From the NCBI GenBank assembly GCA_049513095.1, contig JBEKWL010000001.1, positions 3,008 to 67,007 on the forward strand: a stretch of DNA of 64,000 bases. The letters run 5' to 3'. The position numbers were made by a program, and so were the translations under genes. This document shows positions 7,774 to 63,241 of the stretch, one piece after another; position 1 is the stretch's first letter, and each line of letters starts with the position of its first letter. This stretch comes from Terriglobales bacterium. GTDB lineage: Bacteria > Acidobacteriota > Terriglobia > Terriglobales > Acidobacteriaceae. The notes below the pieces were generated by a model, which was not told the DNA's origin, searched no databases, and worked only from the letters and a program-made list of their open reading frames with translations.

Positions 7774-8559
7774 TTAGAACGTGCATGTCTGAGTAGAGAT
7801 TTCCACACGAGAAAAAGCGCCCTCGACGGCCGCCGTCGCGCGGTAGCTATCGCCGACGCTCAGGTCTGCGAGAAACCACTGTTTGCGAGCCTCGGTGTTT
7901 CCTCGGATCTCTTCAAGCTCAGGATCGAGATCGGGGTGTGTGGTGACGGAAAAATCCGCCAGTGGAAAAGAGAGACCGTCACCAGTGGCCTTCAGGAAGG
8001 ACTCCTTGCGCGTCCAGCAGGCAAAGAAGCCCGGCACTCGGAGGTGATCCGGCAATGCCCGCAGGCCGGCGCGTTCGCGAAGGGAGAAGAATCGCTCGGA
8101 AAGTGCACCAGTGTCGACGTCGCTGCGGATTCTTTCGATATCGACGCCTAACCGGTGCTCACTGCCAACCGCAATCAGCGCGATGCCCGCCGAGTGGGAT
8201 AGGTTGAACTGCAGCGCGCGTGGATTCTGCTCGGGTGCGAGCTGGGGTTTGCCGCTGCTCAGATACTCGAAGCGAATTTCGTTCGCAGGAATTGCAAGGT
8301 AGCCAGCAAGCAGACCCCGAAGTGCCGACCGACATCGGGTGAAGTGAATCCGGTCTCTCTCGAAATGAAACCGGCCGGCGCGGACGAGTTCATCCGCAGA
8401 CAGGACGCTGGCCTCGGAGCTTGCTTTTGCCGGTTCGTCAAGACGCACCCTCCAGAGGTCAACTCGTCCCGACGGAAACACCGGCTGCGAGGGAGTTTGC
8501 GACCACAAACCATCGTGGCCTTGTTTCCTGCCGCCGGCGAGCGCGTTGACATCCTTCAT
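7774..8559 (-). CDS. 4'-phosphopantetheinyl transferase, Sfp-type
   Basis: Motifs: LSADELVRAGRFHFERDR, GKPQL, FNLSHSAGIALIAV, GVDIERIR and W(T)RKESFLKATGDGL. It lies immediately downstream of the NRPS-PKS on the same strand. Confidence 0.85.
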   Translation of the reverse strand: MKDVNALAGGRKQGHDGLWSQTPSQPVFPSGRVDLWRVRLDEPAKASSEASVLSADELVRAGRFHFERDRIHFTRCRSALRGLLAGYLAIPANEIRFEYLSSGKPQLAPEQNPRALQFNLSHSAGIALIAVGSEHRLGVDIERIRSDVDTGALSERFFSLRERAGLRALPDHLRVPGFFACWTRKESFLKATGDGLSFPLADFSVTTHPDLDPELEEIRGNTEARKQWFLADLSVGDSYRATAAVEGAFSRVEISTQTCTF

Positions 8560-14600: not shown

Positions 14601-16522
14601 ATCACCGCGACGGCATCGCGCGCGCGCTCGTTCCCGTCTTGCGATTTGGGCTGAGAATCGTGCTGCGAATTGCGCTGATGCCGCGCCCGGGTTTCGGCTT
14701 CGGCAAGAAAGTCGGACTTCGTGCCGCTCTCTTCCTCTTTCAGAAATTCCGCGAGCTTTGCGATCGTGGGATATTGAAAGACTTTGACTGGAGGAATCTC
14801 ACGTCCGAAGCGCGTGTGGTACTGGCTCACCATGCGCACCGCTGCCAGTGAATTGCCGCCGAGATCGAAGAAGCTGTCGTCGATGCCAACTTCTTCCAGT
14901 TGCAGCAAGTCGCACCAGAGATTTGCCAATTGCTTTTCTGTCGCTGTCCGCGGGGCGATAAAGTCCTGGGCAAGAAGTGGCCGCTTGCCCTCTGGCCGGG
15001 GCAGAGCCTTGCGATCGAGCTTGGCGTTCGGGGTCAGGGGAAATTTTTCCAACCGCAGGAAGACGGAGGGAATCATGTAGCCCGGCAGCGTGGCTTTGAG
15101 GGCCTGGACTAAAGAGGTAGAACTCAAGTCTTCACGGCCCGTGTAGTAGGCGGCCAGGCGTTTATCGCCGGGACGATCCTCGCGAAGAACGACGACGGCC
15201 TGTCCGATTCCCTCGATTTTCGAAAGCACGCTCTCGATTTCGCCCAGTTCGATGCGAAAACCGTGGAGTTTCACCTGCTGGTCGAGACGCCCCAGAAATT
15301 CAAGAGTGCCATCGCGGCGGTGGCGGACCTCGTCGCCAGTACGGTAGAGACGTGCATCAGGACCCTCGCTGGTGGGATCGGTAACGAACCTCTCAGCAGT
15401 CAGCTCAGGACGCTTGAAATACCCGCGAGCCAAGCCCGTGCCGCCAATCCAGAGCTCGCCGGGCGTGCCCAGAGAAACCGGCTTGTGGTTCTCATCCAGA
15501 ACATGGAATTGCGTATTCGCAATGGGTGGACCGAGCGAGATGTGGTCAGCAGAGGTAAGGCGTTCGGTGGAGGACCAGATCGTGGTTTCGGTCGGCCCAT
15601 ACATGTTCCAAAGTTCGCGGCAACGAGGGAGCAATTGACGAGCGAGGTCAGCCGTCAGAGCCTCGCCTCCGCAAAAGATCCTCAGGTCGCTCTTCCCTTC
15701 CCAGCCGTTTTCGAGCAGCATGCGCCAAGTCGTTGGCGTTGCCTGCATCACCGTGACTGCGTGTTGCCGAAGCAATCGTTGCAGCTCGCGAGCGTCCGAA
15801 GATTGTTCCGCGGTGGCAATAACGATCTGGGCGCCGCACACCAGGGGGAGAAGGAATTCCAGGATCGAGATGTCAAAAGAAGTTGTCGTAACCGCCAGGA
15901 GTGTATCGGACGCAGGCATTCCAGGCGTTTCCGCCATGGACAAGAGAAAATTGACCAGCGCGCGCCGCGGGATCATAACTCCCTTGGGCTTTCCCGTCGA
16001 GCCCGAAGTGTAAATCAGGTAGGCGAGATGTTCAGGGTTGCTGCTAAAGGGGAGGTTCGTCTCTGGGGCCTTGGAAAGCGACTCTTTTTCTCGGTCGAGC
16101 AGAACAACTCGGGCGGTCGTTTCCGGCAGACTTTCCCGCTGGGAAGAATGGGATAGGAGGAGAGAGACTTCGGAGTCCGCCAGCATGAATGCCAGACGGT
16201 CTTTTGGAAACTTCGGATCCAGCGGCAGGTAGGTCCCACCGGATTTGAGAGTGGCGAGGAGGCTCACCACCGAATCAAACGAACGATCAAGACACACACC
16301 AACCAGGCTCTCGGGACCGACACCTTGCTCCCGAAGGAAATGTGCCAGGCGGTTCGAGCGGGAATTCAGCTCCCGGTAGGTAATCTGCTCCGGTCCCAGG
16401 GTCAGGACGGGGGCGTCAGGTGTGCGCTCGACTTGGTCTTCAATGAACTCGTGCGGGCCTCGCCTCAGGGGGTAGTCCCGCCGGGCATCGTAGTGAGGGC
16501 CGATCACACCTGTTCCCATCAT
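8636..16522 (-). CDS. Hybrid NRPS-PKS megasynthase, 2628 aa: A-PCP-KS-AT-ACP-C-PCP-TE-like
   Basis: Domains with approximate nt spans. A domain (14993-16450): LAYLIYTSGSTGKPKGV, NMYGPTETT, YRTGDEV, GRLDQQVKLHGFRIELGEIE, PNAKLDRKAL. PCP1 (14738-14950): FFDLGGNSL. KS (13337-14617): NTACSTTL, EAHGTGTPVGDP, GNIGHPTNAAG. AT (12173-13054): GHSIGE plus HAFHS, a malonyl-type signature. ACP (11603-11827): GFDSLS. Ala/Pro-rich linker. C domain (10028-11290): HHIICDGWS. PCP2 (9623-9829): FFALGGHSI. Alpha/beta-hydrolase TE-like domain (8783-9565): GGYCLGG. No KR, DH or ER domain was seen. Confidence 0.95.
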   Translation of the reverse strand: MMGTGVIGPHYDARRDYPLRRGPHEFIEDQVERTPDAPVLTLGPEQITYRELNSRSNRLAHFLREQGVGPESLVGVCLDRSFDSVVSLLATLKSGGTYLPLDPKFPKDRLAFMLADSEVSLLLSHSSQRESLPETTARVVLLDREKESLSKAPETNLPFSSNPEHLAYLIYTSGSTGKPKGVMIPRRALVNFLLSMAETPGMPASDTLLAVTTTSFDISILEFLLPLVCGAQIVIATAEQSSDARELQRLLRQHAVTVMQATPTTWRMLLENGWEGKSDLRIFCGGEALTADLARQLLPRCRELWNMYGPTETTIWSSTERLTSADHISLGPPIANTQFHVLDENHKPVSLGTPGELWIGGTGLARGYFKRPELTAERFVTDPTSEGPDARLYRTGDEVRHRRDGTLEFLGRLDQQVKLHGFRIELGEIESVLSKIEGIGQAVVVLREDRPGDKRLAAYYTGREDLSSTSLVQALKATLPGYMIPSVFLRLEKFPLTPNAKLDRKALPRPEGKRPLLAQDFIAPRTATEKQLANLWCDLLQLEEVGIDDSFFDLGGNSLAAVRMVSQYHTRFGREIPPVKVFQYPTIAKLAEFLKEEESGTKSDFLAEAETRARHQRNSQHDSQPKSQDGNERARDAVAVIGMTGRFPGAANLDQLWRNLCNSVESISFFAPEELGPGIDEHLRNDPDYIRARGLIEGADLFDAAFFGINPLEARVMDPQQRVFLELAQQALENAGYDPERYKGRIGVFAGIGDNHYYTTNLLTQPDLLAMAGKLAVEYGNQKDYIALRTAYLLDLRGPAISVNTACSTTLLTVDQAYRSLLDYECDIALSGGVDITVPQKSGFLYQEGGTFAKDGHCRPFDADATGTMFCDGAGVVMLKRLADALTDGDTIYAVIRGTGKNNNGARPASFLAPSVDGQADAIALAQSNANVPVETIRYIEAHGTGTPVGDPIEFEALRKVFESKTGKKQFCYIGSIKGNIGHPTNAAGVAGLIKAALVLHHEQIPPTLHFKTPNPKIDFASSPFIMADKLIPFPRGEEARRTAVSSFGFGGTNVHVILEEAPVPKDARASRPLQLLPFSAKSPAALAAYSQALAEHLANAAPESFADAAYTFQTGRKQMTHRRFVVAADSSEAARILLQPNPLRGSSKRCQRRDPPVVFLFGGQGTQYVNMGLNLYRDEPLFRAVVDDCCEHLKPHLGRDLRELLYPQSGDEKTAQISLQDTFFTQPSIFVIEYALARFWQSLGIEPAMMAGHSIGEFVAATLAGVWELEDALGIIALRGRLMQNLPRGSMMAVSGSADSIAKILPATLQIASNNAPALCVVSGPEADVGQFQKQLEAESIVCRHLHTSHAFHSAMMDPMVEPLRAAVAKIQLRAPVRPFVSTVTGRLITAAETTDPAYWANHARSTVEFSKAIQCLKDQGYDLFLECGPRSTLCSLARQQFTPDHPCTAIPTFADTPENNTEWATVLFALGSLWQNGVSIDWDAFYANEDRRRIPLPTYPFERQRFWVDPAPVATAAPNLQAASSDSAIRPPVGQFVEPLASSATLASVTSGSSLASRPSSRGDRIAARLVDLLVPVSGHERSQISTSATFMEQGFDSLSLTQVAFAIRKEFSAKVSFSQLMNQWPNVDLLAAHLDATLPADILAETAATPASPPVPAPPAAPAAVESRPNVRKNSSTLEEVVADQARTIARLVTLLEKAGMNDPTSAAPAAAGTPLVTTLPKDNSQAPAPAASGLLEVESTVPQRGIYASSRLSERLSASYNESMTVRFTGNIAIEKMARSMERLVGRHDALRASFDEAGLVMKIAAAQKIAMPVTDLSSINDLTRQEERLRKLIADETALPFPLPAGPLFRCQMVLLGPDHAAVIFTAHHIICDGWSLDVLIHDLCAFYSEEISGAPASLEPAKSYVDYVQSVTERYRSEEFKEAGSYWHAKFKDGFPVLVLPTDHPRSARREFSARRLDHPIPAPVVENLREVGANEGCSFFAVLLSSLAILLARISQQRRFVIALPTAEQPVIGQPGLVGHCVNLLPFVVELREGEAVSAFLERVQGELLAALDHANFTMVSLLEDLRPVGPALGISPISTGLTNVKKFKPNELPQSGFAADYDANPKGYESFELYLNAVEMEENLEVRCHYDIKLFEDLTIREWLTTLGSIFQDLAADPSRQVLDLARLKRADASPATEIVYTHASNREAAHEFLSAVSTSAPELPRQFSDSPASSTRFNTMAEPALLRALLPLWQRVLDVREIGPDDDFFALGGHSIAAAQLFDLIQLVLGCTAPLSALYDASTPRMLASVLSRGSRAEDWQSLVAINRSGNRPPLFLAHAAEGNVLLYRSLAAHLGADQPVFGLQSADLDGRSPVDGRFEHVARQYIHEIRQVQPHGPYMLGGYCLGGTLALEMARQLIESGETVGLVALIEIYNFRALRWPLPLHQRFINRFILNPYFHLQNLMAAEGAGKLAFFMEKVRVEITRIKASARLGWARLRNRLLLNANAATPQVKLADIYEEALAQYDVRPYPGELTLFLAERHLAGYNAHLGGWGEVAQGGVRLFSLPISPRGSLVEPYVGQLAALLRGCLDRAIENSKIVVHERLELVGTHVAWIGNGLVESGETGVESATSGPDLGI

Positions 16523-22546: not shown

Positions 22547-25500
22547 TCAGACCTTAGCTCCATGTCGTTGCTGAGCGGCTTTCAGACGGCCGTCGAGTGC
22601 GGGAGCAAGGCCTCTCACGTTAGGCTCCAGCATGAGATTCTGCTGATACCCAGGCACTTCACAAAGCTCGAAGTTGCCATGGAGAATGCGACGCCAACCC
22701 AGCCATTCATCGGCCATTAAACCCTCTAACTGTTTGCTGGCGCGAAATACGAGGGTATCGCCGCCGTACGGCCGCGGCACATATGTTGCCATCGCCTTTT
22801 TGTGTTCAATCCCCAGAGCCTCGAAAATGTACAGCCGCGACAGGCGTGACCGATCCGCAGGACGGTTGCCCCTGATGTTATCGATAGCGATCGCCCTCCT
22901 CGCGAGAGATCGATCCCACAATTCGCGGCACCTGCGCAAAAAGTAGGTCTTGCCTCCGTAGGATAGGTTGTCCACTTCCAGACTGATCCGTTTCTTGGTT
23001 CGGTACCACCAGCGCTGGAGTAGAGAGGCAGACGGCCGGAAGCGCCTGGCATCAGGGGGCATGGATTGGATCATGACGACCAGCCCCACCTCTTGCCCCT
23101 CCGCATTTAGCTGTTGTGCAGCTTCCAAGGCAAGCAGCCCACCCAGGCAGAACCCGCCGAGGAAATACGGCCCTTCCGGTTGAAATTGTCTCAGTTCCTT
23201 CACAAACGCTCTGGCCATTTCCTCCACGGATGTATTCTCTACCAGCTCGCCGTTTAAGCCTCTGGCCTGAAAGGCGTAAACCGGCTGATCCTTCTCCATA
23301 TGCTGCACCAACGCGTGGTATTCGAGAACATTGCCGCCATGCGCATGGAAAAGAAAAAGAGGCGGCCTTGTTCCCTGTTGCCGCATGGGAACCAAAAGGG
23401 ACCAGGAGGGAACCCATTGCTTGTCGCCAAGTATTTTTGCCAGGGAAGCAATCGTCGGAGCTTCCATCAAAGTCGCAAGGGGAAGTTCCACTCCAAATGC
23501 CTCCCGAATTTGTGACACCGCGCGGACAGCCATCAATGAGTGAGCACCTAAATCAAAAACATCCTCCTGGACACCAATATGCTCAATCTTCAGCAGGTCC
23601 GTCCAAATCGCCGCCAGTGTCTTCTCGATCTCAGTGCGAGGGCTCACAAAATCTTGGGAGCGCTGTGTGGTCTCGTGGACAAAGGTCGGAAGCGCTTTGC
23701 GGTCAATTTTCCCGTTCGCCGTCAACGGAAATTTTTCCATCAGGACAAACGCCGCCGGAACCATGTACTGCGGCAGCCGTTCTTTCAAATTCCTGCGCAA
23801 TGCCGCAGGCGCCAGGATTTCCTCGCCCGGGGAAGGCAGTGACCGCAGGTGCGCATCGGCTGTTTGCTGCCGCGCGAGGCGGGACCCCGCCGCAGGCCGA
23901 ATGGCGTACACGTATGACGGCTGGGCTTCGCTGAGCGATGAGCTGTGCTCGGCAAGAACCTCATAGCGCTGCCGTTCCAGCAGGGTAGTAATTGACTCCA
24001 GGTTCTCCGGATGATCCACTCGGACGACCAACTGGCGAATTTTGGACCAATCGTCAGGGCTGAGTTCTCGCAGTATATCCAACTCCCTTTCCTCGACATT
24101 AATCCTGAGCAGGTCAATGCGTTCAATCCCTTCGGCTGCGATAACGCTCGACAAAGTTGGCGGTTGAGCGGACTTGGACCCGGCATCTAGCGCGACATCA
24201 TTCGATTCACCGATCTCCTCGGCAAATCGCTCATCGCGTGACTCACTCTGCTCGTTGGACGCATGGTTCCCAGCCGCCTCGCGTTCCGCCGCCACATCAT
24301 CGTACGACCCGGATGAGCCCGACAATGCCTCAAAGAATGACGCCTCCGCTGACTTACTTTCGCGAGCGAGACCATACGGCAGACATTGCACTGCCGTGCC
24401 CCACGCTTCAGCATTCGCGCTCAGACACGCATATGCCGCAGGGTCGGGCTCAAAGCAAAGAATCCTCAGATTCCGCTCTAGGCGGCTGGCGAACACCGTA
24501 AACAAACCAATGTTTGCGCCGACGTCTACAATGCAGTCACCGTCGAGGATTGCGATCCCGTGCCGGAGATAAGCTTGCCGCACGAAGATTTCGTTGTACA
24601 TGGAATCGGTTTCGTTCTTGTTCAGATGTGCCACCGGCGAGCCATCGGGCAACCAAGAAAGCGTCTTGTTCCCCCAAAGCGGCTGACTCGCGCGTTTCGG
24701 AACCACATAAGCGATCAACTGCTTGGTGCCTGACCCATCTTCACTTGCCATCACCAGCGCGTCTCTTACGCCGCGCTGCTCGCGCAAGACTCCAGCGATT
24801 TCACCGAGCTCGATGCGGTAGCCGTGGATTTTGACCTGATCGTCAATGCGACCGCAAAACTCGATGTTTCCGTCCGGCAAGTAGCGCGCCAGGTCGCCGG
24901 TGCGATACATTCGCCCATCAGGATCTGGACTGAAATGATCGGGCACGAATTTCTCAGCCGTCAAATCAGGGCGATTGAGATATCCCCGGGTTACGCCAGA
25001 GCCGGCGATGTGAAGCTCGCCTTCAACGCCGACGGGCACGGGCTGCCCACTCTCATCGAGAATATAAATGCGGCTATTGGGCAGAGGCCTGCCTAAGGGA
25101 AGCGTGCCAGACCGCGTACTCGGCAGTTGCGGTCCGACATGATAGGTCAGCACGCCTACCGTGGTTTCTGTGGGACCATAGTGGTTGTAGATCTCGCAGC
25201 CCGGGGACAATACTCGCAGTCGATCGATCCAATCCAAGCGCGAGGCCTCGCCACCTAGGATCAGGCGGCTTCTGGGCATCACTCGCTCCGGATTTCTTCC
25301 ACTCTGCAATGCCGCCAAATGGGAGGGCACGATCTTGAGAACGTCGATCCTCTCGCGCTCGAAGTAATCCGACAGCATGGCCTGACTCTCAGCCCGCTCA
25401 TGCGAGATAACATGCAGGCAGCCACCCGTAGTCAGCGCGGGAAAAATCACCGTATTGCCGAGGTCGGCGGCAATTGTCGATACCGTCGCGTGCTTCATGC

Positions 25501-26197
25501 CCGGCTGGAGCTGCAGTCGCTCGGAAACGCCCAGTACGTAGTTGACAATGTTTCTGTGCTCGATCCCCACACCCTTGGGACGGCCGGTTGAGCCGCTCGT
25601 ATAAATCACATAAGCGAGGTTTGCGGAGTTGTACGGAGGAGCGTTTTGCGAGACGCTTTGCAGATCATCCCACGCGAGTGAATCCAGGCAGACGGCCTGC
25701 GCAACACCCGGTGTCAGGCTTCCCAAGAGGCTGGTTTGCGTGACAACTAACTGGGCCTTGGCATCACCGAGCATGAATGCGACCCTCTCTTGAGGATAGG
25801 CAGCATCAATCGGCAAGTAAGCGGCTCCGGCCTTCAGGATGCCCAACATTCCGATCACCATTTCCAGCGATCGCTCGACGAAAAGCCCTACAGGAACATC
25901 GGGCCCCGCCCCCAGGCTTCTCAGGTGAAGTGCCAGTTGGCTGGCGCGACGGTTGAGATCGTCGTAGGTCAACCTCTGCTGCTCGAACACCAAGGCCACC
26001 TGATTGGGGGTTCGCCGTACCTGTTCCTCGATCAACTGGTGCAAGGAGAGGTTCTTTTCGGGATATGCCACGGCTGTGTTGTTCCAATCCACGAGCAACT
26101 GCTGACGGTCGGCAGCGGCGACCGCCGGCAACGTGGAAGTGCCCTGGTCCGGACCGAGGGCAATCGCTCGACCGTCGATTAGGTCATCCATTGACAT
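22547..26197 (-). CDS. NRPS, 1216 aa: adenylation domain interrupted by an FkbM-type methyltransferase, then PCP and a TE-like domain
   Basis: A-domain motifs: LAYVIYTSGSTGRPKGV, NHYGPTETT, YRTGDLA, GRIDDQVKIHGYRIELGEI. An FkbM-like insert follows (about nt 23888-24685): IVDVGANIGLFTVFAS...CFEPDP...IDLLRINVEERE. The A9/A10 motifs resume after it (LPQYMVPAAFVLMEKFPLTANGKIDRKAL). PCP: FDLGAHSL. TE-like domain (about 22598-23365): PLFLFHAHGGN and GGFCLGG. Confidence 0.9.
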   Translation of the reverse strand: MSMDDLIDGRAIALGPDQGTSTLPAVAAADRQQLLVDWNNTAVAYPEKNLSLHQLIEEQVRRTPNQVALVFEQQRLTYDDLNRRASQLALHLRSLGAGPDVPVGLFVERSLEMVIGMLGILKAGAAYLPIDAAYPQERVAFMLGDAKAQLVVTQTSLLGSLTPGVAQAVCLDSLAWDDLQSVSQNAPPYNSANLAYVIYTSGSTGRPKGVGIEHRNIVNYVLGVSERLQLQPGMKHATVSTIAADLGNTVIFPALTTGGCLHVISHERAESQAMLSDYFERERIDVLKIVPSHLAALQSGRNPERVMPRSRLILGGEASRLDWIDRLRVLSPGCEIYNHYGPTETTVGVLTYHVGPQLPSTRSGTLPLGRPLPNSRIYILDESGQPVPVGVEGELHIAGSGVTRGYLNRPDLTAEKFVPDHFSPDPDGRMYRTGDLARYLPDGNIEFCGRIDDQVKIHGYRIELGEIAGVLREQRGVRDALVMASEDGSGTKQLIAYVVPKRASQPLWGNKTLSWLPDGSPVAHLNKNETDSMYNEIFVRQAYLRHGIAILDGDCIVDVGANIGLFTVFASRLERNLRILCFEPDPAAYACLSANAEAWGTAVQCLPYGLARESKSAEASFFEALSGSSGSYDDVAAEREAAGNHASNEQSESRDERFAEEIGESNDVALDAGSKSAQPPTLSSVIAAEGIERIDLLRINVEERELDILRELSPDDWSKIRQLVVRVDHPENLESITTLLERQRYEVLAEHSSSLSEAQPSYVYAIRPAAGSRLARQQTADAHLRSLPSPGEEILAPAALRRNLKERLPQYMVPAAFVLMEKFPLTANGKIDRKALPTFVHETTQRSQDFVSPRTEIEKTLAAIWTDLLKIEHIGVQEDVFDLGAHSLMAVRAVSQIREAFGVELPLATLMEAPTIASLAKILGDKQWVPSWSLLVPMRQQGTRPPLFLFHAHGGNVLEYHALVQHMEKDQPVYAFQARGLNGELVENTSVEEMARAFVKELRQFQPEGPYFLGGFCLGGLLALEAAQQLNAEGQEVGLVVMIQSMPPDARRFRPSASLLQRWWYRTKKRISLEVDNLSYGGKTYFLRRCRELWDRSLARRAIAIDNIRGNRPADRSRLSRLYIFEALGIEHKKAMATYVPRPYGGDTLVFRASKQLEGLMADEWLGWRRILHGNFELCEVPGYQQNLMLEPNVRGLAPALDGRLKAAQQRHGAKV

Positions 26198-26257: not shown

Positions 26258-27406
26258 TCACAACGACCAGCCAATCAGCTCCTTCATGATTTCGTTCGTG
26301 CCGGCGTAAATGCGCTGCACGCGGCTGTCGGTCCACATGCGCGCAATCGGATACTCGATCATGTAGCCGTAGCCGCCATGCAATTGAAGGCACTCGTCGA
26401 TGACGCGGCACTGGCATTCGGTGAGCCAATACTTGGCCATCGCTGCCGTGACCGCATCCAGCTGGCCGGCGATGAAACGCTCGATGCAATTGTCGAGAAA
26501 AACGCGGCCAACATGGACTTCGGTCTTGCATTGCGCCAACTTGAAGCGCGTGTTCTGAAAATCGATCAGCGACTTGCCGAACGCTTTGCGATCTTTCACA
26601 TACTTGGTGGTAATGGCGACTGCTTGTTCCGCCATGGCGACCGCGCCAACGCCAATCGTGAGGCGCTCGTAGGGCAATTGCTGCACCATCTGGTTGAATC
26701 CCTTGCCCTCGGAACCAAGGAGATTCGAGACCGGAACCCGCACGTCATCAAAGAACATTTCACAGGTGTCCAACCCGTTCATGCCGACTTTATCGAGCGG
26801 GCGGCCTACGCGGTACCCCGGAAGATTCTTCGGTTCGACAACAACGAGCGAGATGCCCTTCAAACCGGCTGCTTTAGGGTCGGTCTTCAGCGCGACGCAT
26901 ACCAGGCTGGCGTGCCAACCGTTGGTAATGAAAGTCTTCGAACCGTTGATGACATAATGATCGCCCTCGCGCCGCGCGGTGGTTTTAACGCCCGCCAGAT
27001 CAGAGCCGGCCGAGGGCTCGGTCATCGCGATTGCGGCCACCAACTCGCCACGCCCCATGCGCGGGAGCCAGTTGCGCTTCTGTTCGTCCGTGCCATACGA
27101 AAGGATGTAATGACCGACAATACTCTGAATGCTGGAACCGAAGTGAACTCCCACCCGCGCGAGTTCCTCGTTTACTACGGATTCATGGGCGAACGTCCCT
27201 CCGCCACCGCCGTATTCTTGAGGAAAGTCGGGGAGCAGGATGCCTGCCTTACCTATTGCAGTCCAAGCTTCGTCGTCAGGGCGGTGCTGCTCGCGCCAGC
27301 GGGCTTGATGCGGCAGGAATTCCTCTTCTATGAATCGGCGAACCGTTTTTCGGAACATCCGCAGTTCGTCATTCAGCCACGGGGATTGGTACACAACGGT
27401 AGACAT
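26258..27406 (-). CDS. Acyl-CoA dehydrogenase family protein
   Basis: 382 aa with AMTEPSAGSD, FITNG and YAGTNEIMKELI, the typical ACAD pattern. Confidence 0.9.
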   Translation of the reverse strand: MSTVVYQSPWLNDELRMFRKTVRRFIEEEFLPHQARWREQHRPDDEAWTAIGKAGILLPDFPQEYGGGGGTFAHESVVNEELARVGVHFGSSIQSIVGHYILSYGTDEQKRNWLPRMGRGELVAAIAMTEPSAGSDLAGVKTTARREGDHYVINGSKTFITNGWHASLVCVALKTDPKAAGLKGISLVVVEPKNLPGYRVGRPLDKVGMNGLDTCEMFFDDVRVPVSNLLGSEGKGFNQMVQQLPYERLTIGVGAVAMAEQAVAITTKYVKDRKAFGKSLIDFQNTRFKLAQCKTEVHVGRVFLDNCIERFIAGQLDAVTAAMAKYWLTECQCRVIDECLQLHGGYGYMIEYPIARMWTDSRVQRIYAGTNEIMKELIGWSL

Positions 27407-27508: not shown

Positions 27509-28465
27509 CTACGATTGTAATTCTTTGCCCCCCGAGGCTTCGAGTCCGAGTGGGTACCCATACTTGATCAGCAAGGGCCAGGTCGCAGCAGTCACAAGCA
27601 TTCTGTCGCGCCTTTTCATTTCGTTTTTCCAAGCGTGATTTTCTCGAAGCTCGACGTTACCCGTCACAAAGCGGCTCGGGTTTCCAGACACGGTGTGCTG
27701 AGCCTCGAGGTTCAGGCTGTGCTCCTCCTGAAGCGGAAGAGATGAACGAGTCTCATCTACGAAGTTCAGAATGCGCTGGAGAGATCGTCGTGGATTGGCT
27801 ACAAAGTCTTCATAGCGAAGATGCAAAGGGCGGTGCCGGAATCGTTTGCTCAGAACCTCAATGACGCTGTTTTGGAAGTTCCACTTGAGGGAAGCATTGA
27901 GCGGGTTTATGTCCCTCGTCCAGACGAGGCGCCCGTCCTTAACCCGTTTGCGGAGAAAGGAATATGCGGCGGCGCGTGGATCGCGGGTCAGATGAAGGAT
28001 ATAGGGGTCGATCCCGTCTGCTAACTGCAGGATGCAAGCGTACATGGAGCGCTTGGAAGAATCAACGATGACCTCGCAATTGAAAACCCTTTGAATTGCG
28101 CGATAAACTCTCTCGAGTTCGGCCAAGGGCTTAGCCAGGCGTCGCTGGAGGGTTACTCCTCTTGAGGTCATGGCCCTTAGGCAAGCGCGGTCGCGAGCCT
28201 CCAAATTACGAAACTCAAGCATCTGCGCAATAAGGGACTCGTCCCGACCGCCGTAAGCTTCCCTCAGCACATCGTTCCACATCTTGCAGGCAACGACCGG
28301 CACTCCGCAACCACAAGGAACCTGTCCAGACGCGAGAATACCCCAGAATTCAAGGAACTCCCCCACGTGGGTGAAACCCTCAACCTGACCAAGGGTGTTC
28401 CCGAGGATGGTGCTCCCGCTGCGCCCCAGTCCGGCGATGTAGAGCACCTTGACCTTATTGGGCAT
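27509..28465 (-). CDS. Sulfotransferase family protein
   Basis: 5'-PSB loop KVLYIAGLGRSGSTILGN and 3'-PB-like LHLTRDPRAAAYS. The ATG at 28465 is preceded by GGGGAGAGAAG. Confidence 0.8.
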   Translation of the reverse strand: MPNKVKVLYIAGLGRSGSTILGNTLGQVEGFTHVGEFLEFWGILASGQVPCGCGVPVVACKMWNDVLREAYGGRDESLIAQMLEFRNLEARDRACLRAMTSRGVTLQRRLAKPLAELERVYRAIQRVFNCEVIVDSSKRSMYACILQLADGIDPYILHLTRDPRAAAYSFLRKRVKDGRLVWTRDINPLNASLKWNFQNSVIEVLSKRFRHRPLHLRYEDFVANPRRSLQRILNFVDETRSSLPLQEEHSLNLEAQHTVSGNPSRFVTGNVELRENHAWKNEMKRRDRMLVTAATWPLLIKYGYPLGLEASGGKELQS

Positions 28466-28583
28466 TCTAGCTTCTCTCCCCAAACTGTGATGAATTCGAG
28501 ACTTCCAGCAATCACTGAACCGAAACTGCTTCTGATGAAATAGGGCGTTTCCGTGCGTTTAGTCGTGCCGGAATCGCTTAGCC

Positions 28584-55186: not shown

Positions 55187-56335
55187 CTAGCAGGCACCGT
55201 CTCCGCCGATGACTGCTTTCGGAGTTTGCAGAAGAATTTTCATATCGAGCCAGGGAGAGCAATTCCGCGCATAGCGCAAATCCAGCCGCACCATGTCGTT
55301 GAATTCCACGCGGCTGCGGCCATGCACCTGCCACAGTCCGGTGATTCCCGGCTTCGCCTCCAGCAGACGGCGGAGATGCCACGTGGCATAGGCCTCCACT
55401 TCATAGGGCACGGGCGGACGAGGCCCCACCAACGACATTTCGCCGCGCAGCACGTTGATCAACTGCGGCAGTTCGTCCAGACTTGAGCGCCGCAGAATCC
55501 TGCCCACCGGCGTAATCCGTGGATCGTCCGTCAGCTTGAAAACACCCAATCCGTTTCCGTTGGCAGACTTCTTTTCCGCCTGACCGGCGATCAACTGACG
55601 AACGTATTCCTTGTGCTCGCTGGCATCATTATTTATGTGCATCGAGCGGAATTTCAGAAACGTGAACGGCGTTCCATGCTCGCCGATGCGTTTCTGCCGA
55701 AACAGAACCGGTCCGCGGGAAGTCAGCTTGATCGCCGCCGCGATGACAAGAAACACGGGCGACAACATCACCAGCAAGGACAGGCTTCCGAGGACGTCGA
55801 TCAGCCGTTTCGTGGCCAGGCGAAGCCGGTTCGTCTCTTGGCGCTCTTCGAGATCCGGGTAGAGGGTCAAGTTGCTGGGACGGTCCGGATCCTGCGCATC
55901 CCAGTCATCGGGAAAGACATGAAAGGAAAACTTGATCCGGCTGAACTGATCGGTGTCGAGCCGGTCGCGCAGTGCCGCGCCGATCCGGGAAAGGATCGTA
56001 CTGAGGACTGCGTTGTTCTCCAGAATGATCTCGGTGAACATGATTCCCACCACCGAGTTTGTCGTATACCAGCCCGTAACGTCGGTTTCACGGGTCGCTC
56101 CCTGGAGCGCGGAAAGCACGTCCAGCAAGTCGCGGCCTTGCTTGTCGCCCGGCTGATTACGCCCGGTTTCGATGAGCAAAAGCACGAACGGCCGCTCCGA
56201 ACGCTCGCTACGCTTGCGCTCCAGCGAGAGCATCCGACGGAAAGCTTCTTCCGAGAGGATTTCTTGGGAGTCGAGCAAGTTCTGCGGTTGAGACTTCCGA
56301 TCAACGGATTGCGGGTTTTCCGATGTTGACGCCAC
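55187..56335 (-). CDS. Polyprenyl-phosphate glycosyl-1-phosphate (priming) transferase with an N-terminal degenerate GGDEF-like domain
   Basis: C-terminal Bac_transf core: KRLIDVLGSLSLLVMLSPVFLVIAAAIKLTSRGPVLFRQKRIG, FKFRSM, DELPQLINVLRGEMSLVGPRP, KPGITGLWQV. The N-terminal ~145 aa align with a GGDEF fold (RPFVLLLIE...; RETD-VTGWY-TTNSV compared with RxxD-xxxRY-GGDEF). Confidence 0.85.
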   Translation of the reverse strand: MASTSENPQSVDRKSQPQNLLDSQEILSEEAFRRMLSLERKRSERSERPFVLLLIETGRNQPGDKQGRDLLDVLSALQGATRETDVTGWYTTNSVVGIMFTEIILENNAVLSTILSRIGAALRDRLDTDQFSRIKFSFHVFPDDWDAQDPDRPSNLTLYPDLEERQETNRLRLATKRLIDVLGSLSLLVMLSPVFLVIAAAIKLTSRGPVLFRQKRIGEHGTPFTFLKFRSMHINNDASEHKEYVRQLIAGQAEKKSANGNGLGVFKLTDDPRITPVGRILRRSSLDELPQLINVLRGEMSLVGPRPPVPYEVEAYATWHLRRLLEAKPGITGLWQVHGRSRVEFNDMVRLDLRYARNCSPWLDMKILLQTPKAVIGGDGAC

Positions 56336-56440: not shown

Positions 56441-57367
56441 CTAACTATCGGCTTTCGGCTGAGGGAGATTCTCACCTTCCGCCGCTGCCGGGCTATACCG
56501 TGAGTAATAATACTTGGTGTCATTCCTGCTACAGCTGTTTACGACCACGCCAAGGATCGTGGAATTGTCGAGGGCTGCCACAGCCCGCGCGAGCTGCTTC
56601 TTTTCGCATACCCCCTCGCGGGTCACAAGCAACACTCCATCCGCCAGTTTCATCCAGAGTGGTGTATCCGCCAGAGGAAGAACCGGAGGGGTGTCGATAA
56701 TAATCCAATGGAAAAATGTTCCGAGTTCTTCGAGCAACTGCTGCAGCCGGCCCGACTGCATAAGCTCAATTGGATTCTCGGGGGTCACGCCTGCGGGAAT
56801 GAACCAGAGGCCGGAGCCCTCGATCTTGTACACGACTTCAGACAGCTGACGCTCTCCACGGAGAACCTCGCTGAGACCAGCCAGGCTGCGATGAAAGCCG
56901 AAACGGCGCCCTAACTCGGGTCGCCTCAAATCGCCATCGATCAGCACCGCCTTGAGAATTTTGCTCCGCGATTGATTAAGCGCAAGGTTTGCTGCGATCA
57001 TACTCTTCCCTTCTTCAGGGATGCTGCTGGTGATCACGATCCGTTTGAGCTTGCGCTGTTCGCGCAGGTGTCGCAGCTTCAACCCCAGCACGCGAAACTT
57101 CTCCGCTGCCAAGCCGCCCTGGTCCGTCAAACACACCAGTCGGGAATCTGCCGTCATTGCTGGCAAGAGCACTTTCGCGGAGGTAAACGTCTCTGCCCCT
57201 GGAGACTCTGGTGTCGCTGCCGCCGGCAATTCGGGAAGAGATTGCTTGCGCTCGATTTCCTGGTCGACCCCTTGCAGCAGATCCGCGACTGAGTCGGCAT
57301 TTTTCGGCAGGCTTCCGCCCGACCGCTCGGTCTCCGCTCGTTGCAACGCTTCAAATATATAGCTCAT
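56441..57367 (-). CDS. BY-kinase (CpsD/CapB-type tyrosine autokinase)
   Basis: Walker A ITSSIPEEGKSMIAANLA, Walker A'/B-like IIDTPP and the C-terminal Tyr cluster KYYYSRY. The start at 57367 (MSYIFEALQRAE) matches the family N-terminus. Confidence 0.85.
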   Translation of the reverse strand: MSYIFEALQRAETERSGGSLPKNADSVADLLQGVDQEIERKQSLPELPAAATPESPGAETFTSAKVLLPAMTADSRLVCLTDQGGLAAEKFRVLGLKLRHLREQRKLKRIVITSSIPEEGKSMIAANLALNQSRSKILKAVLIDGDLRRPELGRRFGFHRSLAGLSEVLRGERQLSEVVYKIEGSGLWFIPAGVTPENPIELMQSGRLQQLLEELGTFFHWIIIDTPPVLPLADTPLWMKLADGVLLVTREGVCEKKQLARAVAALDNSTILGVVVNSCSRNDTKYYYSRYSPAAAEGENLPQPKADS

Positions 57368-57383
57368 GTAGAAGACACCTTGC

Positions 57384-58337
57384 CTATTGCAGTCGGCCCT
57401 TCGTCCCGGATCCCTGCTGCATGCGCTCACGCACTTCGAGCAGCGTCTTCACCGCCAGCAGGAGCTCGCGCTGTTCCGGTTCTTCCGCCAGCCGAGTTCC
57501 AGCATGGTTCGGTTCCAAGGCCACCACCCCGAGCCGTAAATCCCGCGCGACGCCGTCTATGAGTTCGGAGGTAATCGTGGCCGCATGTTTGGCGTAGCCC
57601 GCGAGCAGCGCGTTCTCGCAGATAGTGTTGATCAGCCGCGGAATTCCCCGAGAGTGGCGGAACACAGCCTCGATCGCTGGCGCGGAAAAAATCTCGACCG
57701 CGGCTGGCGCCCCTGCAATCCGAAGACGGCGGTTCATGTATTCCCTGGTTTCGTTCGCACTGAGCGGTTCGAGATGGCAACGCAGCGCGATCCGCTGTTT
57801 TAGCTGCCGGAGTTCATGGGAATCGAGTTTCTGATCGAGTTCCGGCTGCCCCGCCAGCACGATCTGCAGCAACTTTTGCTGCGATGTTTCCAGGTTGGTC
57901 AAAAGCCGGATCTCTTCCAGTATTTCCGGCGACAGGTGGTGAGCTTCGTCCACCACCAGAATCGTCGTCAATCCCTTTTGATGTCTCTGCAGCAGGAAGC
58001 CATTCAGCACGTGGATCAGCTCGTCTTTGGCCTTGCCCGTGACTTGCAACCCAAAATCGCCCGCGATATAGCGCATGAATTCCAGTGGCGAAAGCGATGG
58101 ATTGAAAATCAGGGCAAAGGCCACATCGCGGCGCTGCAGCAACCCCAGCAACGAGCGCAGCATGAGCGTCTTCCCCGTACCCACCTCGCCCGTCAAAACT
58201 ACAAATCCCCGGTGCGCCGTCACCCCGTAATACAACGAAGCGAGCGCTTCGTTGTGCCGCGTCGTGGGAAACAAAAACGACGGGTCCGGCGTGATCTCGA
58301 ACGGGTTTCGCTGCAGATTGTATAGGCTCTTATACAT
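57384..58337 (-). CDS. ExeA-like AAA ATPase of PEP-CTERM-type EPS loci
   Basis: NPFEITPDPSFLF, Walker A LTGEVGTGKT and Walker B LVVDEAH. Confidence 0.8.
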   Translation of the reverse strand: MYKSLYNLQRNPFEITPDPSFLFPTTRHNEALASLYYGVTAHRGFVVLTGEVGTGKTLMLRSLLGLLQRRDVAFALIFNPSLSPLEFMRYIAGDFGLQVTGKAKDELIHVLNGFLLQRHQKGLTTILVVDEAHHLSPEILEEIRLLTNLETSQQKLLQIVLAGQPELDQKLDSHELRQLKQRIALRCHLEPLSANETREYMNRRLRIAGAPAAVEIFSAPAIEAVFRHSRGIPRLINTICENALLAGYAKHAATITSELIDGVARDLRLGVVALEPNHAGTRLAEEPEQRELLLAVKTLLEVRERMQQGSGTKGRLQ

Positions 58338-59937: not shown

Positions 59938-61377
59938 CTACATTCCTAAGGGTTTGGCCCACTGGTACGAAAAGGTGACAAAAATCCGATTTCGACTCGT
60001 ATCCTGCGTCAGGGCTGGGGGTGTCGCCGCAAAATACCGCTCTTGAAAGTCGTGCGTGTAGCCCATTCGGATCCCGATACTCTTCCCAATGTCACGCTCC
60101 AGCGAGACGCCTACCGAAGTCATATTGATTGAACTAGCGCTGCCTGCCAAGGGGAAGGTAAGCAACTGGTTCGTTCCGTAGCTCGCCGCAAGAGCAGCCG
60201 TCCACCCCGGAACCAGTGCGCGGCGGAACGTGCCATTAACGGTCTGCAAACGGACGGCGCCCATAACGCCGCCGCCGTCGCTGATGTTTCGGGAGAATCC
60301 GGCAGACACGCCAGTACGCTGGTTCGCCCAGCCGCCCTGCATTCCGCCCGCGACGGACCAATTATTGGATGGAGCAACCGGCAGCGCGCCCGGGGCCAAA
60401 CCCTGGTTCTCCAAATACTGAGGGCCGAGGAAGCCAGTCAGTGTGAATTGTTTCGAAAGGCTCAGTGTGTCCACCGCAAAGAAGCTATTGACCCGGGTCT
60501 CGCCGCTGGGACTGAAGGTGATGCGCTGGAAACCGTAGCTTGCGCCGCCCCAGTCTCCCCGCAAGATCCGGTGCAGCCAGAAGGCAGTCCCTGAAGCGGT
60601 TTGCGAATCCGTCAGCTGAGTCCCCGCGGGAACGTTGGTGAAGTGTATATCATAGAACGACCCGCTCGCCCCAATCAGATCGTTCAAGGCAAAGTGATAA
60701 TTCGTCTCGACCGTCGTCATACTGGATCTTTGTGTGGACAATGGAGCAATCAGACTGGCGTTCGGTCCGCCTGATCCGGCGACGACTCCGGTGCCATTGC
60801 CCGCGTCAAAGAATCCCGTGGTCATGGAAAAGCTTTCTGCCACCCGCAGGTTCACGTGCGGGCTCAACCGGTACTGCGAATCGAAATTCAGGTTTTGCGA
60901 CCCCCAGTTCTGATCTGTGATGTTCTGATTCACAGTCAGGCCGCCAGCGTATCCAAGCATCCAGCGCACTCGCGACGACGACTCCTCAATTCTTATGTTG
61001 GGGAAGAACGACTCGCTCGTACCGCTTTCCGTCCCGCTTGAAAGCAGCAACGGGTTGGAATCATAGACCGCGCCCACATTCACCCCGCCTCGCAGATAGT
61101 TCGATCGTTCTAACTCGGAGATGAAGGCCGAAGATATTCCAGCTCCCCCAAGCATTGCCGGTATATTAGGTAGATCGTTGTTCGTGTCCTCTGCGTCGCC
61201 CTCACCCTGCATTCCCGCTATGGCCGAGAGTGCGGCTACCGGAGCCGTTCTCGTGCTATCGGCGCTGGAATCCTGCGCCGGTTGGTTCTGCGGAGGCGGG
61301 TTCTGCCCCGCCGAGAGAACCTGCAACCCCGCCGCCATCCACCCGAGAATCAACCAGCGTCGAATACTCATAATCAC
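59938..61377 (-). CDS. Outer-membrane beta-barrel protein of EPS loci (uncharacterised)
   Basis: Signal peptide MIMSIRRWLILGWMAAGLQVLSAG, alternating beta-strand pattern and C-terminal FVTFSYQW. Confidence 0.6.
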   Translation of the reverse strand: MIMSIRRWLILGWMAAGLQVLSAGQNPPPQNQPAQDSSADSTRTAPVAALSAIAGMQGEGDAEDTNNDLPNIPAMLGGAGISSAFISELERSNYLRGGVNVGAVYDSNPLLLSSGTESGTSESFFPNIRIEESSSRVRWMLGYAGGLTVNQNITDQNWGSQNLNFDSQYRLSPHVNLRVAESFSMTTGFFDAGNGTGVVAGSGGPNASLIAPLSTQRSSMTTVETNYHFALNDLIGASGSFYDIHFTNVPAGTQLTDSQTASGTAFWLHRILRGDWGGASYGFQRITFSPSGETRVNSFFAVDTLSLSKQFTLTGFLGPQYLENQGLAPGALPVAPSNNWSVAGGMQGGWANQRTGVSAGFSRNISDGGGVMGAVRLQTVNGTFRRALVPGWTAALAASYGTNQLLTFPLAGSASSINMTSVGVSLERDIGKSIGIRMGYTHDFQERYFAATPPALTQDTSRNRIFVTFSYQWAKPLGM

Positions 61378-62155: not shown

Positions 62156-63241
62156 CTACTTCGCGTCCCGCGCACTGTCGGTACCAAGAAGTCGTGCAGA
62201 CTCTGCGCGCGGCGCTAAGTGGTACTCCTGGATTTTGTAAAGCAGCGCACGATAGCTGATATTCAGTAAACGAGCTGCCGCTTTCCGGTTCCAGTGTGTC
62301 TGTTCGAGCGCTTCGGCAATCGCGCCGCGCTCGGTTTCCCCTTTTGCGTTTCTTACCAGCAACTTCAGAGACGATTTTTCTTCCGACGTGTGCAGGCTCG
62401 AAGGCGGACCGCTGCTTTTCGCGTGCCCGTTTCCGTTCCCACCCTTACTTGCGGACCCGTAATCGGGACGCGAAAGCAATTCCTGCAACGCCGCGCCCTC
62501 ATCGCCGTGCGCCAGGAAGCGTTTGGCAAAGTTCTCCAGTTCGTGCAGATTGCCGGGCCACGCACACTGCTGGCACGCATCCAGCAACTCGCTTGCGAAG
62601 CGCGGGGCCGGCACGCCATAGCGCCGGGCCAGCCGGTTCATCAGGTGCCCCAACAGCAGCGGGATTTCCTCGTGCCTCTCCCGCAGGGGTGGCACGCGCA
62701 ATTCGAAAGCGCTCAAGCGGTAGAACAACTCTTCCTGAATTCTCTTCTCTGCCGCTGCCAACTCCAGGTCCTCGCATGTGGCGGCAATGATGCGCACATC
62801 GGCCTGGATCGGGCTCTGGCCGCCGCACCGGACAAACTCTCCCGTTTCCAGCAGTCTTAGAAGCCGCCGTTGCACTGCGTCCGGCAAGGCATCGAATTCA
62901 TCCAGCAAGATCGTTCCCTTGGCACACTGCTCGAACTTGCCTACCGTCGATTCCGGTCGCCCGTTGGCGGAAGCGTGTTCGTAACCGAACAGTTCGTTCT
63001 CCAGCAGGTCGGAGGTGAGCACCGCACAACCGACTCGCTTGAACGGGAAGCTGGAACGAATCGAAAGCGAATGGATAAGCCGGGCAGCGGTCGTCTTCCC
63101 GCTTCCCGCTTCTCCGGTAACCAGCACCGGCACGTCTGTCTGCGAGAGTAACTCCGCTTGCGTACGCAGCCGGCGTGTGGCCGGGCTGGCCGCAATGAAA
63201 TACAACTCTTCGCTGATTCGCTCGATTTCTGGCTGATACAT
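62156..63241 (-). CDS. bEBP-like AAA+ transcription regulator without a receiver/sensor domain and without the GAFTGA loop
   Basis: Walker A VLVTGEAGSGKT, Walker B LLDEFDAL, RLLRLLETGEFVRCGG, DVRIIAAT, PPLRERHEEI and a C-terminal Fis-type HTH (NRKAAARLLNISYRALLYKIQEY). The GAFTGA position reads EHASANGR. Confidence 0.85.
   Translation of the reverse strand: MYQPEIERISEELYFIAASPATRRLRTQAELLSQTDVPVLVTGEAGSGKTTAARLIHSLSIRSSFPFKRVGCAVLTSDLLENELFGYEHASANGRPESTVGKFEQCAKGTILLDEFDALPDAVQRRLLRLLETGEFVRCGGQSPIQADVRIIAATCEDLELAAAEKRIQEELFYRLSAFELRVPPLRERHEEIPLLLGHLMNRLARRYGVPAPRFASELLDACQQCAWPGNLHELENFAKRFLAHGDEGAALQELLSRPDYGSASKGGNGNGHAKSSGPPSSLHTSEEKSSLKLLVRNAKGETERGAIAEALEQTHWNRKAAARLLNISYRALLYKIQEYHLAPRAESARLLGTDSARDAK

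Follow-up and report, generated by a model that had tools for sequence, protein, structure and literature searches.

What does the N-terminal half of a priming glycosyl-phosphate transferase do when no curated domain library recognises it? The question is raised by a polysaccharide locus of a Terriglobales bacterium (Acidobacteriota; assembly GCA_049513095.1, contig JBEKWL010000001.1, positions 3,008 to 67,007 of the forward strand; this stretch of 64,000 nucleotides is referred to as the window, and all coordinates are its own unless stated otherwise). Its minus-strand open reading frame (ORF) 55187..56335 encodes a protein of 382 amino acids, in which an N-terminal GGDEF-like domain (the N-domain) precedes a small monotopic phosphoglycosyl transferase (PGT; monotopic PGTs are termed monoPGTs). 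Small monotopic PGTs are the enzymes that commit undecaprenyl phosphate to Wzx/Wzy-type exopolysaccharide (EPS). A preliminary description, made by reading the sequence by eye, had proposed that the N-domain is a degenerate GGDEF domain that lost its catalytic signature and kept the RxxD motif of the inhibitory site (I-site), through which cyclic di-GMP (c-di-GMP) might gate the first committed step of repeat-unit synthesis. Our analysis places the domain in the GGDEF fold with high confidence, predicts that it is catalytically dead, and leaves its role as a c-di-GMP receptor on the priming enzyme as a tentative proposal. The gene starts with GTG, with a GAGGAG Shine-Dalgarno sequence ~8 nt upstream; as close homologues share the N-terminus MASTS..., we take this start, and with it the residue numbering used throughout (R82, D85), to be right.

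No family in Pfam or NCBIfam matched residues 1-165, even at E<=10, and because these curated hidden Markov model (HMM) libraries returned nothing, we turned to structure prediction for the fold. A homologue search with residues 1-173 recovered 163 homologues, from which an 84-sequence alignment (A1) was used to build a first AlphaFold2 (AF2) model; a second AF2 model was computed for the full-length protein from a different alignment. Ten-residue blocks average a predicted local distance difference test score (pLDDT) of 59-88 over residues 21-140 in the first model and of 65-93 over residues 31-140 in the second; within the structured residues 24-146 the core reaches about 80-93, against a mean of 65-69. 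The first model has the topology alpha(29-46)-beta(50-57)-alpha(67-80)-beta(86-91)-beta(95-100)-alpha(109-125)-beta(134-141), and the N-domain adopts the same fold and topology in both. Foldseek searches of the PDB with the first model listed 50 matches, all of them GGDEF domains (E 2e-6 to 2e-3), among them diguanylate cyclases of Thermotoga maritima, an Idiomarina phytochrome-diguanylate cyclase, GcbC, SiaD, WspR, DgcB, DosC and YfiN. With the second model, the top 36 matches and 47 of 50 overall were GGDEF domains, the other three being PglC, which matched the C-terminal half. Target-normalised template modelling (TM) scores rose to 0.65 for the first model and to 0.67 overall, within a range of about 0.5-0.67 and at root-mean-square deviations of 3-5 A. 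Of the two routes by which the preliminary description had hoped to see the fold confirmed, structure prediction thus gave a GGDEF domain and the curated HMMs gave no match.

The segments of the protein that bear on this assignment, all on the minus strand, are as follows.

55187..56335, minus strand: whole gene, GGDEF-like domain plus monoPGT (ORF list; Pfam Bac_transf)
56267..56335, minus strand: residues 1-23, low-complexity leader, predicted disordered (pLDDT <50 in both models; variable alignment columns)
55898..56266, minus strand: residues 24-146, truncated GGDEF-like domain, predicted dead, alpha0-beta1-alpha-beta2-beta3-alpha3-beta4 (AF2 and Foldseek)
56201..56221, minus strand: E39-R-K-R-S-E-R45, Arg-rich end of helix alpha0 (profile and hhalign alignments; family conservation)
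56168..56188, minus strand: F50-VLLLIE56, strand beta1 (hhalign; HMM alignment to SiaD)
56081..56092, minus strand: R82-E-T-D85, RxxD in I-site register (three agreeing alignments; near-invariant)
56066..56074, minus strand: G88-W89-Y90 on strand beta2, at the canonical xRY position before GGDEF (near-invariant)
56051..56065, minus strand: T91-T-N-S-V95, beta2-beta3 hairpin replacing GG(D/E)EF (aligned to GGEEF; variable columns)
55985..55987, minus strand: R117 on helix alpha3, candidate third I-site residue (always basic in the family)

Sequence comparisons were carried out with a trimmed family profile (A2), which was searched against all PDB sequences and also used in hhalign. The best PDB match was the GGDEF domain of SiaD (7e6g; E 0.018), with 'tRetDvtGWYkees' opposite 'LREYDLCGRWGGEE', and the GGDEF entries 6khu and 5euh were also among the 13 matches. 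The same search returned a likeness to JAMM/Rpn11 through the GWYH motif (E 0.17-0.3), which we discarded as chance, no JAMM domain appearing in the Foldseek lists. Aligned by hhalign to four canonical GGDEF domains (PleD/WspR/Geobacter; sequences checked against their PDB entries), A2 gave E 2.4e-4 over 92 columns with a probability of 44%. In the reciprocal direction, a crude HMM of these four sequences was run on 4,432 six-frame ORFs from the window and 86 loci, and the great majority of its listed matches were members of the N-domain family. Each sequence score is marginal by itself; since the weak scores converge with the fold searches, we regard the GGDEF-fold assignment as secure, very probably correct on the combined weight of models and alignments.

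All three alignments (PDB profile, hhalign and reciprocal HMM) set R82-E-T-D85 opposite the I-site RxxD, which is REYD in SiaD and R359-A-I-D362 in PleD (R82xxD85 on R359xxD362), and G88-W-Y opposite the xRY or GRW that precedes the GGDEF signature. T91-T-N-S-V95 falls opposite GG(D/E)EF, which is GGEEF in PleD by hhalign, and the RxxD accordingly stands five residues before the former GGDEF hairpin, the canonical spacing. E56 lies opposite the first metal-binding Asp of DxDxFK and is the only acidic residue surviving there. The guanine-binding FK..ND segment is deleted (a 6-residue gap opposite PleD FFKKIN in hhalign), and in both AF2 models the domain ends after beta4, without the C-terminal alpha4-beta5 that carries the phosphate-binding Lys/Arg. 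Because GG(D/E)EF, the guanine-binding segment and the C-terminal phosphate-binding part are all lost, the N-domain is predicted to be catalytically dead and cannot be a diguanylate cyclase; as it matches neither the HMM of the family nor its signature motif and lacks the features that bind GTP, it should not be filed as one, although distant membership of the GGDEF superfamily is probable.

The arginines of helix alpha0 fall into a recognisable register as well. In the gapless alpha0-beta1 part of the hhalign alignment, R42 lies on PleD R313 and R45 on the position of WspR R198, the residue 11 positions before the first Asp of DxD (numbering checked on 3bre; the PleD numbering was also checked on the PDB). 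We take PleD R313 and WspR R198 to be arginines of the 'secondary I-site', which hold on to c-di-GMP carried by an adjacent GGDEF domain, roles reportedly described by Wassmann in 2007 and De in 2008. R117 is at +35 from R82, the same spacing as from R367 to R402 in PelD, and its partner in PleD varies with the alignment, being R386 in hhalign, H394 in the reciprocal HMM and R390 by eye, one helical turn apart.

Most of what the preliminary description had read by eye is borne out by these computations. Its span for the degenerate domain, 55901-56263, corresponds to residues 25-145 and coincides with the AF2 core; its coordinates for RETD (residues 82-85, 56081-56092) and TTNSV (residues 91-95, 56051-56065) are exact; and ERPFVLLLIE (residues 47-56), which it had proposed as the counterpart of the DxDxFK strand, does place E56 on the first metal-binding Asp. 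The GGDEF fold itself, the loss of the catalytic hairpin and the canonical spacing of the RxxD are likewise upheld, the first by two models, Foldseek and three sequence computations, the second by the variable columns opposite GGEEF, and the third by a register common to three computations and by the conservation described below.

Conservation was counted over 138 diverse representatives, each standing for one cluster at 50% identity. R82 and D85, invariant in the 84 close homologues of A1, are each retained in 134/138, next to G88 in 136/138, W89 in 135/138 and Y90 in 122/138. Helix alpha0 is as tightly held, with E39 in 125/126, R42 in 124/126 and R45 in 123/127, and residue 117 is basic in 137/138 (Arg in 105, Lys in 32). 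Position 56 is Asp or Glu in 110 of 133 family representatives, and the hairpin columns 91-95 vary freely. Such a pattern is what would be expected if the I-site, and not the active site (A-site), were the functional surface, and it indicates that the RxxD and the Arg-rich alpha0 are under strong purifying selection.

The domain is not confined to this protein. A profile search of 1.84 billion cluster representatives (clusters at 50% identity) recovered 2,565 clusters at E<=1e-3, 1,650 at E<=1e-10 and 301 at E<=1e-30. The pattern TRETD[VLI]xGWY occurs in at least 599 places in a species-representative genome collection; the best 80 of these matches are all from Acidobacteriota (Terriglobales, Acidobacteriaceae, Terriglobia), mostly from peat, bog and soil metagenome-assembled genomes, and 73 of the 80 loci encode a 380-429-aa fusion with both PGT motifs. 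The fusion, whose distribution the preliminary description had left to be surveyed, is therefore no one-off. Standalone forms are proteins of 171-178 aa annotated as 'hypothetical'; their genes directly follow a tyrosine-kinase gene in the same kind of EPS operon, with a fused copy ~3 kb downstream that is 54-58% identical to the window protein (in locus L081, standalone 8001-8531 and fused 11452-12639; in L083, standalone 8001-8516 and fused 11388-12575; coordinates of those loci). Tandem forms with two domains before the PGT were found in P0136, P0153 and P0172; both copies carry ERKR...R and RE(T/S)D..GWY in the first two proteins, and the first copy of P0172 is partly degenerate. P0149 is a 905-aa protein in which an aspartokinase-like enzyme (AA_kinase-ACT) is fused ahead of the domain and PGT. 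No fusion of the domain lacking a PGT was seen among the architectures examined. The two-copy arrangements recur, which suggests that the domain acts in pairs, and the whole constitutes a large acidobacterial domain family, invisible to Pfam and NCBIfam, that also occurs in standalone and tandem form.

Several smaller observations attach to this survey. In L081 and L083, where the standalone copies are 171-176 aa long, ATP-grasp and aspartokinase-like (AA_kinase-ACT) genes lie between the two copies. The word-indexed protein search (P0001-P0120) returned only proteins <300 aa, compared with the usual fused length of ~380-430 aa, and many of its homologues are contig-end fragments or carry frameshifted tails (for example P0001, P0009 and P0025). 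A systematic frameshift after the membrane helix was considered for these short homologues and rejected: the same frameshift peptide recurs in only 3 of 273 proteins, which indicates scattered assembly error.

Following the N-domain, a linker leads into the transferase, for which the relevant features are these.

55850..55876, minus strand: S154-N-L-T-L-Y-P-D-L162, linker motif from the domain to the membrane helix (consensus SNPTLYPDL)
55724..55810, minus strand: residues 176-204, re-entrant membrane helix with a Ser-Pro break, L-S-P-V (191-194) (sequence reading; aligned to the WbaP/PglC N-terminal helix)
55463..55480, minus strand: L286-D-E-L-P-Q291, Asp-Glu catalytic dyad motif of monoPGTs (sequence reading)
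55412-55426, minus strand: GPRPP, residues 304-308, after the dyad (sequence reading)

The linker motif SNPTLYPDL is also kept in the standalone paralogs, which end just past it. Bac_transf (PF02397) covers residues 176-376 (E 3.6e-66; profile positions 1-178 of 179 in the Pfam scan), and the NCBIfam EPS_sugtrans, WbaP and WcaJ models match only over their C-terminal ~200 positions, with scores below cut-off. WbaP and PglC were both matched by the profile search of PDB sequences, and PglC aligns to the C-terminal half at 33-34% identity in Foldseek. PF13727, the domain of unknown function (DUF) of WbaP, had no Pfam match anywhere in the 382-aa protein, whose N-terminus is instead the soluble GGDEF-like domain. 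Judged by these matches, the protein is not of the large monoPGT (WbaP/WcaJ) type, as it is without the N-terminal four-transmembrane bundle and PF13727. The enzyme half reads as a small PglC-like monoPGT and looks functional, since a complete Bac_transf, the LSPV break, the LDELPQ dyad and GPRPP are all present; the Ser-Pro helix and the Asp-Glu dyad would have the roles inferred for them from PglC. The N-terminus of small monoPGTs is cytoplasmic, as established for PglC, and the N-domain would therefore be reachable by a cytoplasmic nucleotide.

On this basis, we propose that the N-domain is a putative receptor for c-di-GMP resembling those in PelD and BcsE, which bind the nucleotide as intercalated dimers (PMC8461298). 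PleD and WspR use c-di-GMP as a bridge between two GGDEF domains, the primary site of one being joined to alpha0 arginines of the other. By analogy, an intercalated c-di-GMP dimer would bind on R82 and D85; R117 might contribute, and the ligand might stack on W89. It would be capped by R42 and R45 of a second copy of the domain, which could be supplied by another PGT subunit, by the standalone paralog or by a tandem repeat, as in the relatives. Such cross-linking could alter how PGT molecules pair or are oriented at the membrane, and the pace of repeat-unit initiation would be governed in this way; alternatively, it could alter the coupling of priming to the complex of polysaccharide co-polymerase (PCP) and kinase. 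If other EPS systems are a guide, EPS synthesis would be switched on when c-di-GMP is high. The placement of the alpha0 arginines on PleD R313 and WspR R198, the variable A-site hairpin and the paired architectures lend this gating circumstantial support and make it plausible. For the whole chain, from binding of c-di-GMP by the N-domain to gating of the priming PGT, which draws on the fold, the conserved motifs and the architectures, we judge the chances to lie just short of even. That the family is a new, minimal class of GGDEF-fold c-di-GMP receptor dedicated to PGTs, which cross-links two copies and thereby switches Wzx/Wzy priming, we put forward with some reserve, as a possibility on the doubtful side of even.

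Known systems share parts of this arrangement and none that we found shares all of it. PelD binds dimeric c-di-GMP through RxxD (R367, D370) and R402 (PMC8461298), and the likeness to it is close: in both cases a dead GGDEF-fold domain in an EPS machine has kept the RxxD, with a basic residue at +35 from the first Arg. PelD, however, is a separate four-transmembrane/GAF/GGDEF protein whose target is a processive glycosyltransferase and whose pathway is synthase-dependent, whereas the domain described here is fused to a Wzx/Wzy priming PGT, is shorter and has no GAF. BcsE offers the same 'cryptic GGDEF' situation in its GIL domain, a former DUF invisible to Pfam that proved by structure to be a degenerate GGDEF binding c-di-GMP through a conserved I-site (PMC8461298), although BcsE, which is soluble and partners BcsQR and cellulose synthase, has no enzyme fusion and belongs to a different sequence family. 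As in these two receptors, a dead A-site, a conserved RxxD and an EPS context occur together in the window protein, for which c-di-GMP binding is predicted. With PleD and WspR it shares the fold, the RxxD five residues before the beta2-beta3 hairpin and the alpha0 arginines at capping positions, but it is without GG(D/E)EF, the FK..ND segment and the C-terminal alpha4-beta5. Hug et al. reportedly found (Science, 2017) that c-di-GMP allosterically activates HfsJ, an early glycosyltransferase of the Caulobacter holdfast, a Wzx/Wzy-type pathway; HfsJ is not a priming PGT and has no GGDEF-like domain. The receptor principle would be a familiar one, and the novelty would lie in a compact, unannotated domain family, in the priming enzyme as its target and in its wide occurrence within one phylum.

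If the proposal holds, second-messenger control would be extended to the most common type of EPS and capsule pathway, for the first time at the priming enzyme, and the catalogue of c-di-GMP effectors would gain a new and compact family of receptors, one that is widespread among Acidobacteriota of soil and peat. Control of the first committed Wzx/Wzy step is poorly understood, and this step draws on scarce undecaprenyl phosphate. The EPS of Acidobacteriota affects soil aggregation and carbon retention, and the domain would provide a handle on matrix production in these abundant, little-studied soil and peat bacteria. A 2025 paper on EpsW/EpsZ describes c-di-GMP control as established for synthase-dependent pathways and post-translational Wzx/Wzy control as incompletely understood (PMC12802240). 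A full-text literature search, which did not cover the monoPGT fusion census of O'Toole 2021, found no paper combining a monoPGT with GGDEF, and no characterised c-di-GMP-binding priming transferase appeared in the literature searched, in keeping with the statement of the preliminary description that no such wiring was known to it. Fusions of small monoPGTs to regulatory domains, receiver domains among them, are reported by O'Toole 2021, as cited in PMC12802240. There, and in EpsW-EpsZ of Myxococcus xanthus, the signal is phosphorylation and not a second messenger, and the folds differ from that of the window protein.

A number of results weigh against c-di-GMP as the ligand, or against the proposed mechanism. 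The sequence similarity to GGDEF is weak (hhalign probability 44%, PDB profile E 0.018), neither the GGDEF (PF00990) nor the PelD_GGDEF model of Pfam matches the N-domain, and about one third of a canonical GGDEF domain is missing from it. R117 has no consistent placement on PleD R390 or PelD R402, the three alignments giving three registers. The PGT half is poorly predicted in the full-length AF2 model (pLDDT 30-60; predicted TM score, pTM, 0.43), which makes the model a poor guide to interdomain geometry. Monomeric action is reported for small monoPGTs (PMC12802240), and a dimerisation mechanism is therefore not obviously needed. No GGDEF or EAL genes were found by motif scan within +-6 kb in 85 related loci, and the crude GGDEF HMM detected no canonical cyclase in the window or 86 loci. 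PilZ proteins are encoded a few kb upstream of the GGDEF-like PGT in related EPS loci (L086, 5575-5928 (+), Pfam E 1.3e-9; L071, 755-1204 (+), E 1.2e-7), which is weak circumstantial support for c-di-GMP input in some of them, and they are limited to 2 of 86. Finally, the conserved block T81-R-E-T-D-x-x-G-W-Y is wider than a canonical I-site, and contact with another ligand or with a protein is therefore possible.

This last point leads to the best-surviving alternative, that the domain is a regulatory or dimerisation module which senses a ligand other than c-di-GMP (uridine monophosphate (UMP), uridine diphosphate (UDP), a UDP-sugar, guanosine triphosphate (GTP), pGpG or another cyclic nucleotide) or docks a partner protein through RETD-GWY. 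Conservation beyond the RxxD, at T81, E83, T84, G88, W89 and Y90, with W89 in place of the canonical Arg, is consistent with it, as are the heavy remodelling of the domain (the 6-residue deletion and the lost C-terminal third) and the lack of linked c-di-GMP turnover genes within +-6 kb in the 85 related loci. A precedent exists in the WbaP DUF (PF13727), a PGT accessory domain that senses UMP, UDP or uridine triphosphate, with a half-maximal inhibitory concentration (IC50) of 4.1 uM for UMP, mediates dimerisation and modulates the committed step (PMC10312794). WbaP resembles the window protein in carrying a non-catalytic N-terminal domain on a phosphoglycosyl transferase; its DUF, however, is Rossmann-like, follows a four-transmembrane bundle and binds uridine nucleotides, whereas the window protein joins a soluble GGDEF-like domain, with c-di-GMP as its predicted ligand, to a PglC-like core. 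What the family has retained speaks for c-di-GMP instead: the residues kept, RxxD and the alpha0 arginines, are the c-di-GMP contacts of GGDEF I-sites, and the segments deleted are those that bind GTP in GGDEF domains. To our knowledge, moreover, the known degenerate GGDEF domains of EPS machines with an intact RxxD, PelD and BcsE, bind c-di-GMP. We consider a different ligand or a docking partner possible, if doubtful.

An unlikely reading, which may also coexist with nucleotide sensing, is that the N-domain serves mainly as substrate or docking site of the upstream bacterial tyrosine kinase (BY-kinase), with phosphorylation of Y90 or Y159 activating the PGT. The BY-kinase gene lies directly upstream of the PGT gene in 79 of 80 related loci and the standalone paralog comes right after the kinase gene, but this adjacency is the standard Wzx/Wzy operon order and is not specific. 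Both tyrosines are conserved (Y90 as counted above, Y159 of LYPDL in 72/84), yet Y90 sits in a core beta-strand at the canonical GGDEF aromatic position. Staphylococcus aureus CapM is reported to be activated by CapB phosphorylation, as cited in PMC12802240 and PMC10312794. The invariant RxxD and the alpha0 arginines would be left unexplained by phosphorylation. Very unlikely, lastly, is that the GGDEF likeness is a structure-prediction artefact of a shallow family, masking a different alpha/beta fold or a relic without regulatory role: the mean pLDDT of only 65-69, the modest Foldseek scores and the silence of curated HMMs would allow it, but the core pLDDT is 80-93, models from different alignments agree, the top structural matches are GGDEF domains without any other palm or ferredoxin fold among them, methods based on sequence alone reach GGDEF in the same register, and the size of the family (2,565 clusters) and the strong constraint on it speak against a relic.

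The PGT gene lies within a long, all-minus-strand polysaccharide locus of the window. Its regulators are an UpxY-type antiterminator and a sigma54 activator; export and chain length are represented by an outer-membrane polysaccharide export (OPX) protein, a 479-aa protein, a PEP-CTERM-type chain-length determinant, an ATPase and a tyrosine autokinase; the sugar-modifying genes encode a WbpB-like dehydrogenase, an acetyltransferase and an aminotransferase, WbpB/D/E-like neighbours that make UDP-GlcNAc and UDP-2,3-diacetamido sugars candidate substrates of the PGT; and further downstream follow many glycosyltransferases, a Wzx flippase, a Wzy-like protein and an Asn-synthase homologue, among others. 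The core order Export-OMP-PCP-ATPase-kinase-PGT-dehydrogenase (OMP, outer-membrane protein) is kept in 71-79 of 80 related loci, and from this gene content and order the pathway is of the Wzx/Wzy type. The locus was also compared with the components of an XrtA/PEP-CTERM exopolysaccharide locus (chain-length determinant, ATPase, Tyr autokinase, export protein, TIGR03013 transferase and exosortase). TIGR03007 scores above its cut-off (285.8 vs 278.85), and TIGR03015, TIGR03018 and TIGR03027 are best or near-best matches that all fall below cut-off; the PGT scores 161 against TIGR03013, whose cut-off is 393. As the scanned window ORFs include no exosortase, the locus is at most a candidate member of the XrtA system proper.

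The sigma54 activator of the window, at the head of the locus (62156-63241, minus strand, 361 aa), consists of AAA+ and helix-turn-helix domains only, without a receiver domain, and the syntenic activators of L081 and L083 (504-516 aa) possess one. FleQ-type AAA+ domains can bind c-di-GMP. The 479-aa protein (59938-61377, minus strand) is encoded between the genes for the export protein and the chain-length determinant, a position that it keeps in 73 of 80 related loci. Neither Pfam nor NCBIfam matches it at E<=1e-5, and it may be an outer-membrane component. The longest ORFs of the tyrosine kinase and of the PEP-CTERM-type ATPase upstream of it (56441-57430 and 57384-58337, both minus strand) overlap by 47 nt, and because kinase homology begins near residue 106, the kinase probably starts later than its first GTG codon.

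Within the polysaccharide locus there is also a 1,216-aa protein resembling a non-ribosomal peptide synthetase (22547-26197, minus strand), with adenylation, FkbM-methyltransferase, carrier and thioesterase domains. It is accompanied by an acyl-CoA dehydrogenase (26258-27406), a sulfotransferase (27509-28483) and, farther away, a phosphopantetheinyl transferase (7774-8559), a set that hints at a polymer bearing acyl and/or sulfate groups. A giant ORF of 2,628 aa (8636-16522, minus strand) follows downstream of the EPS locus.

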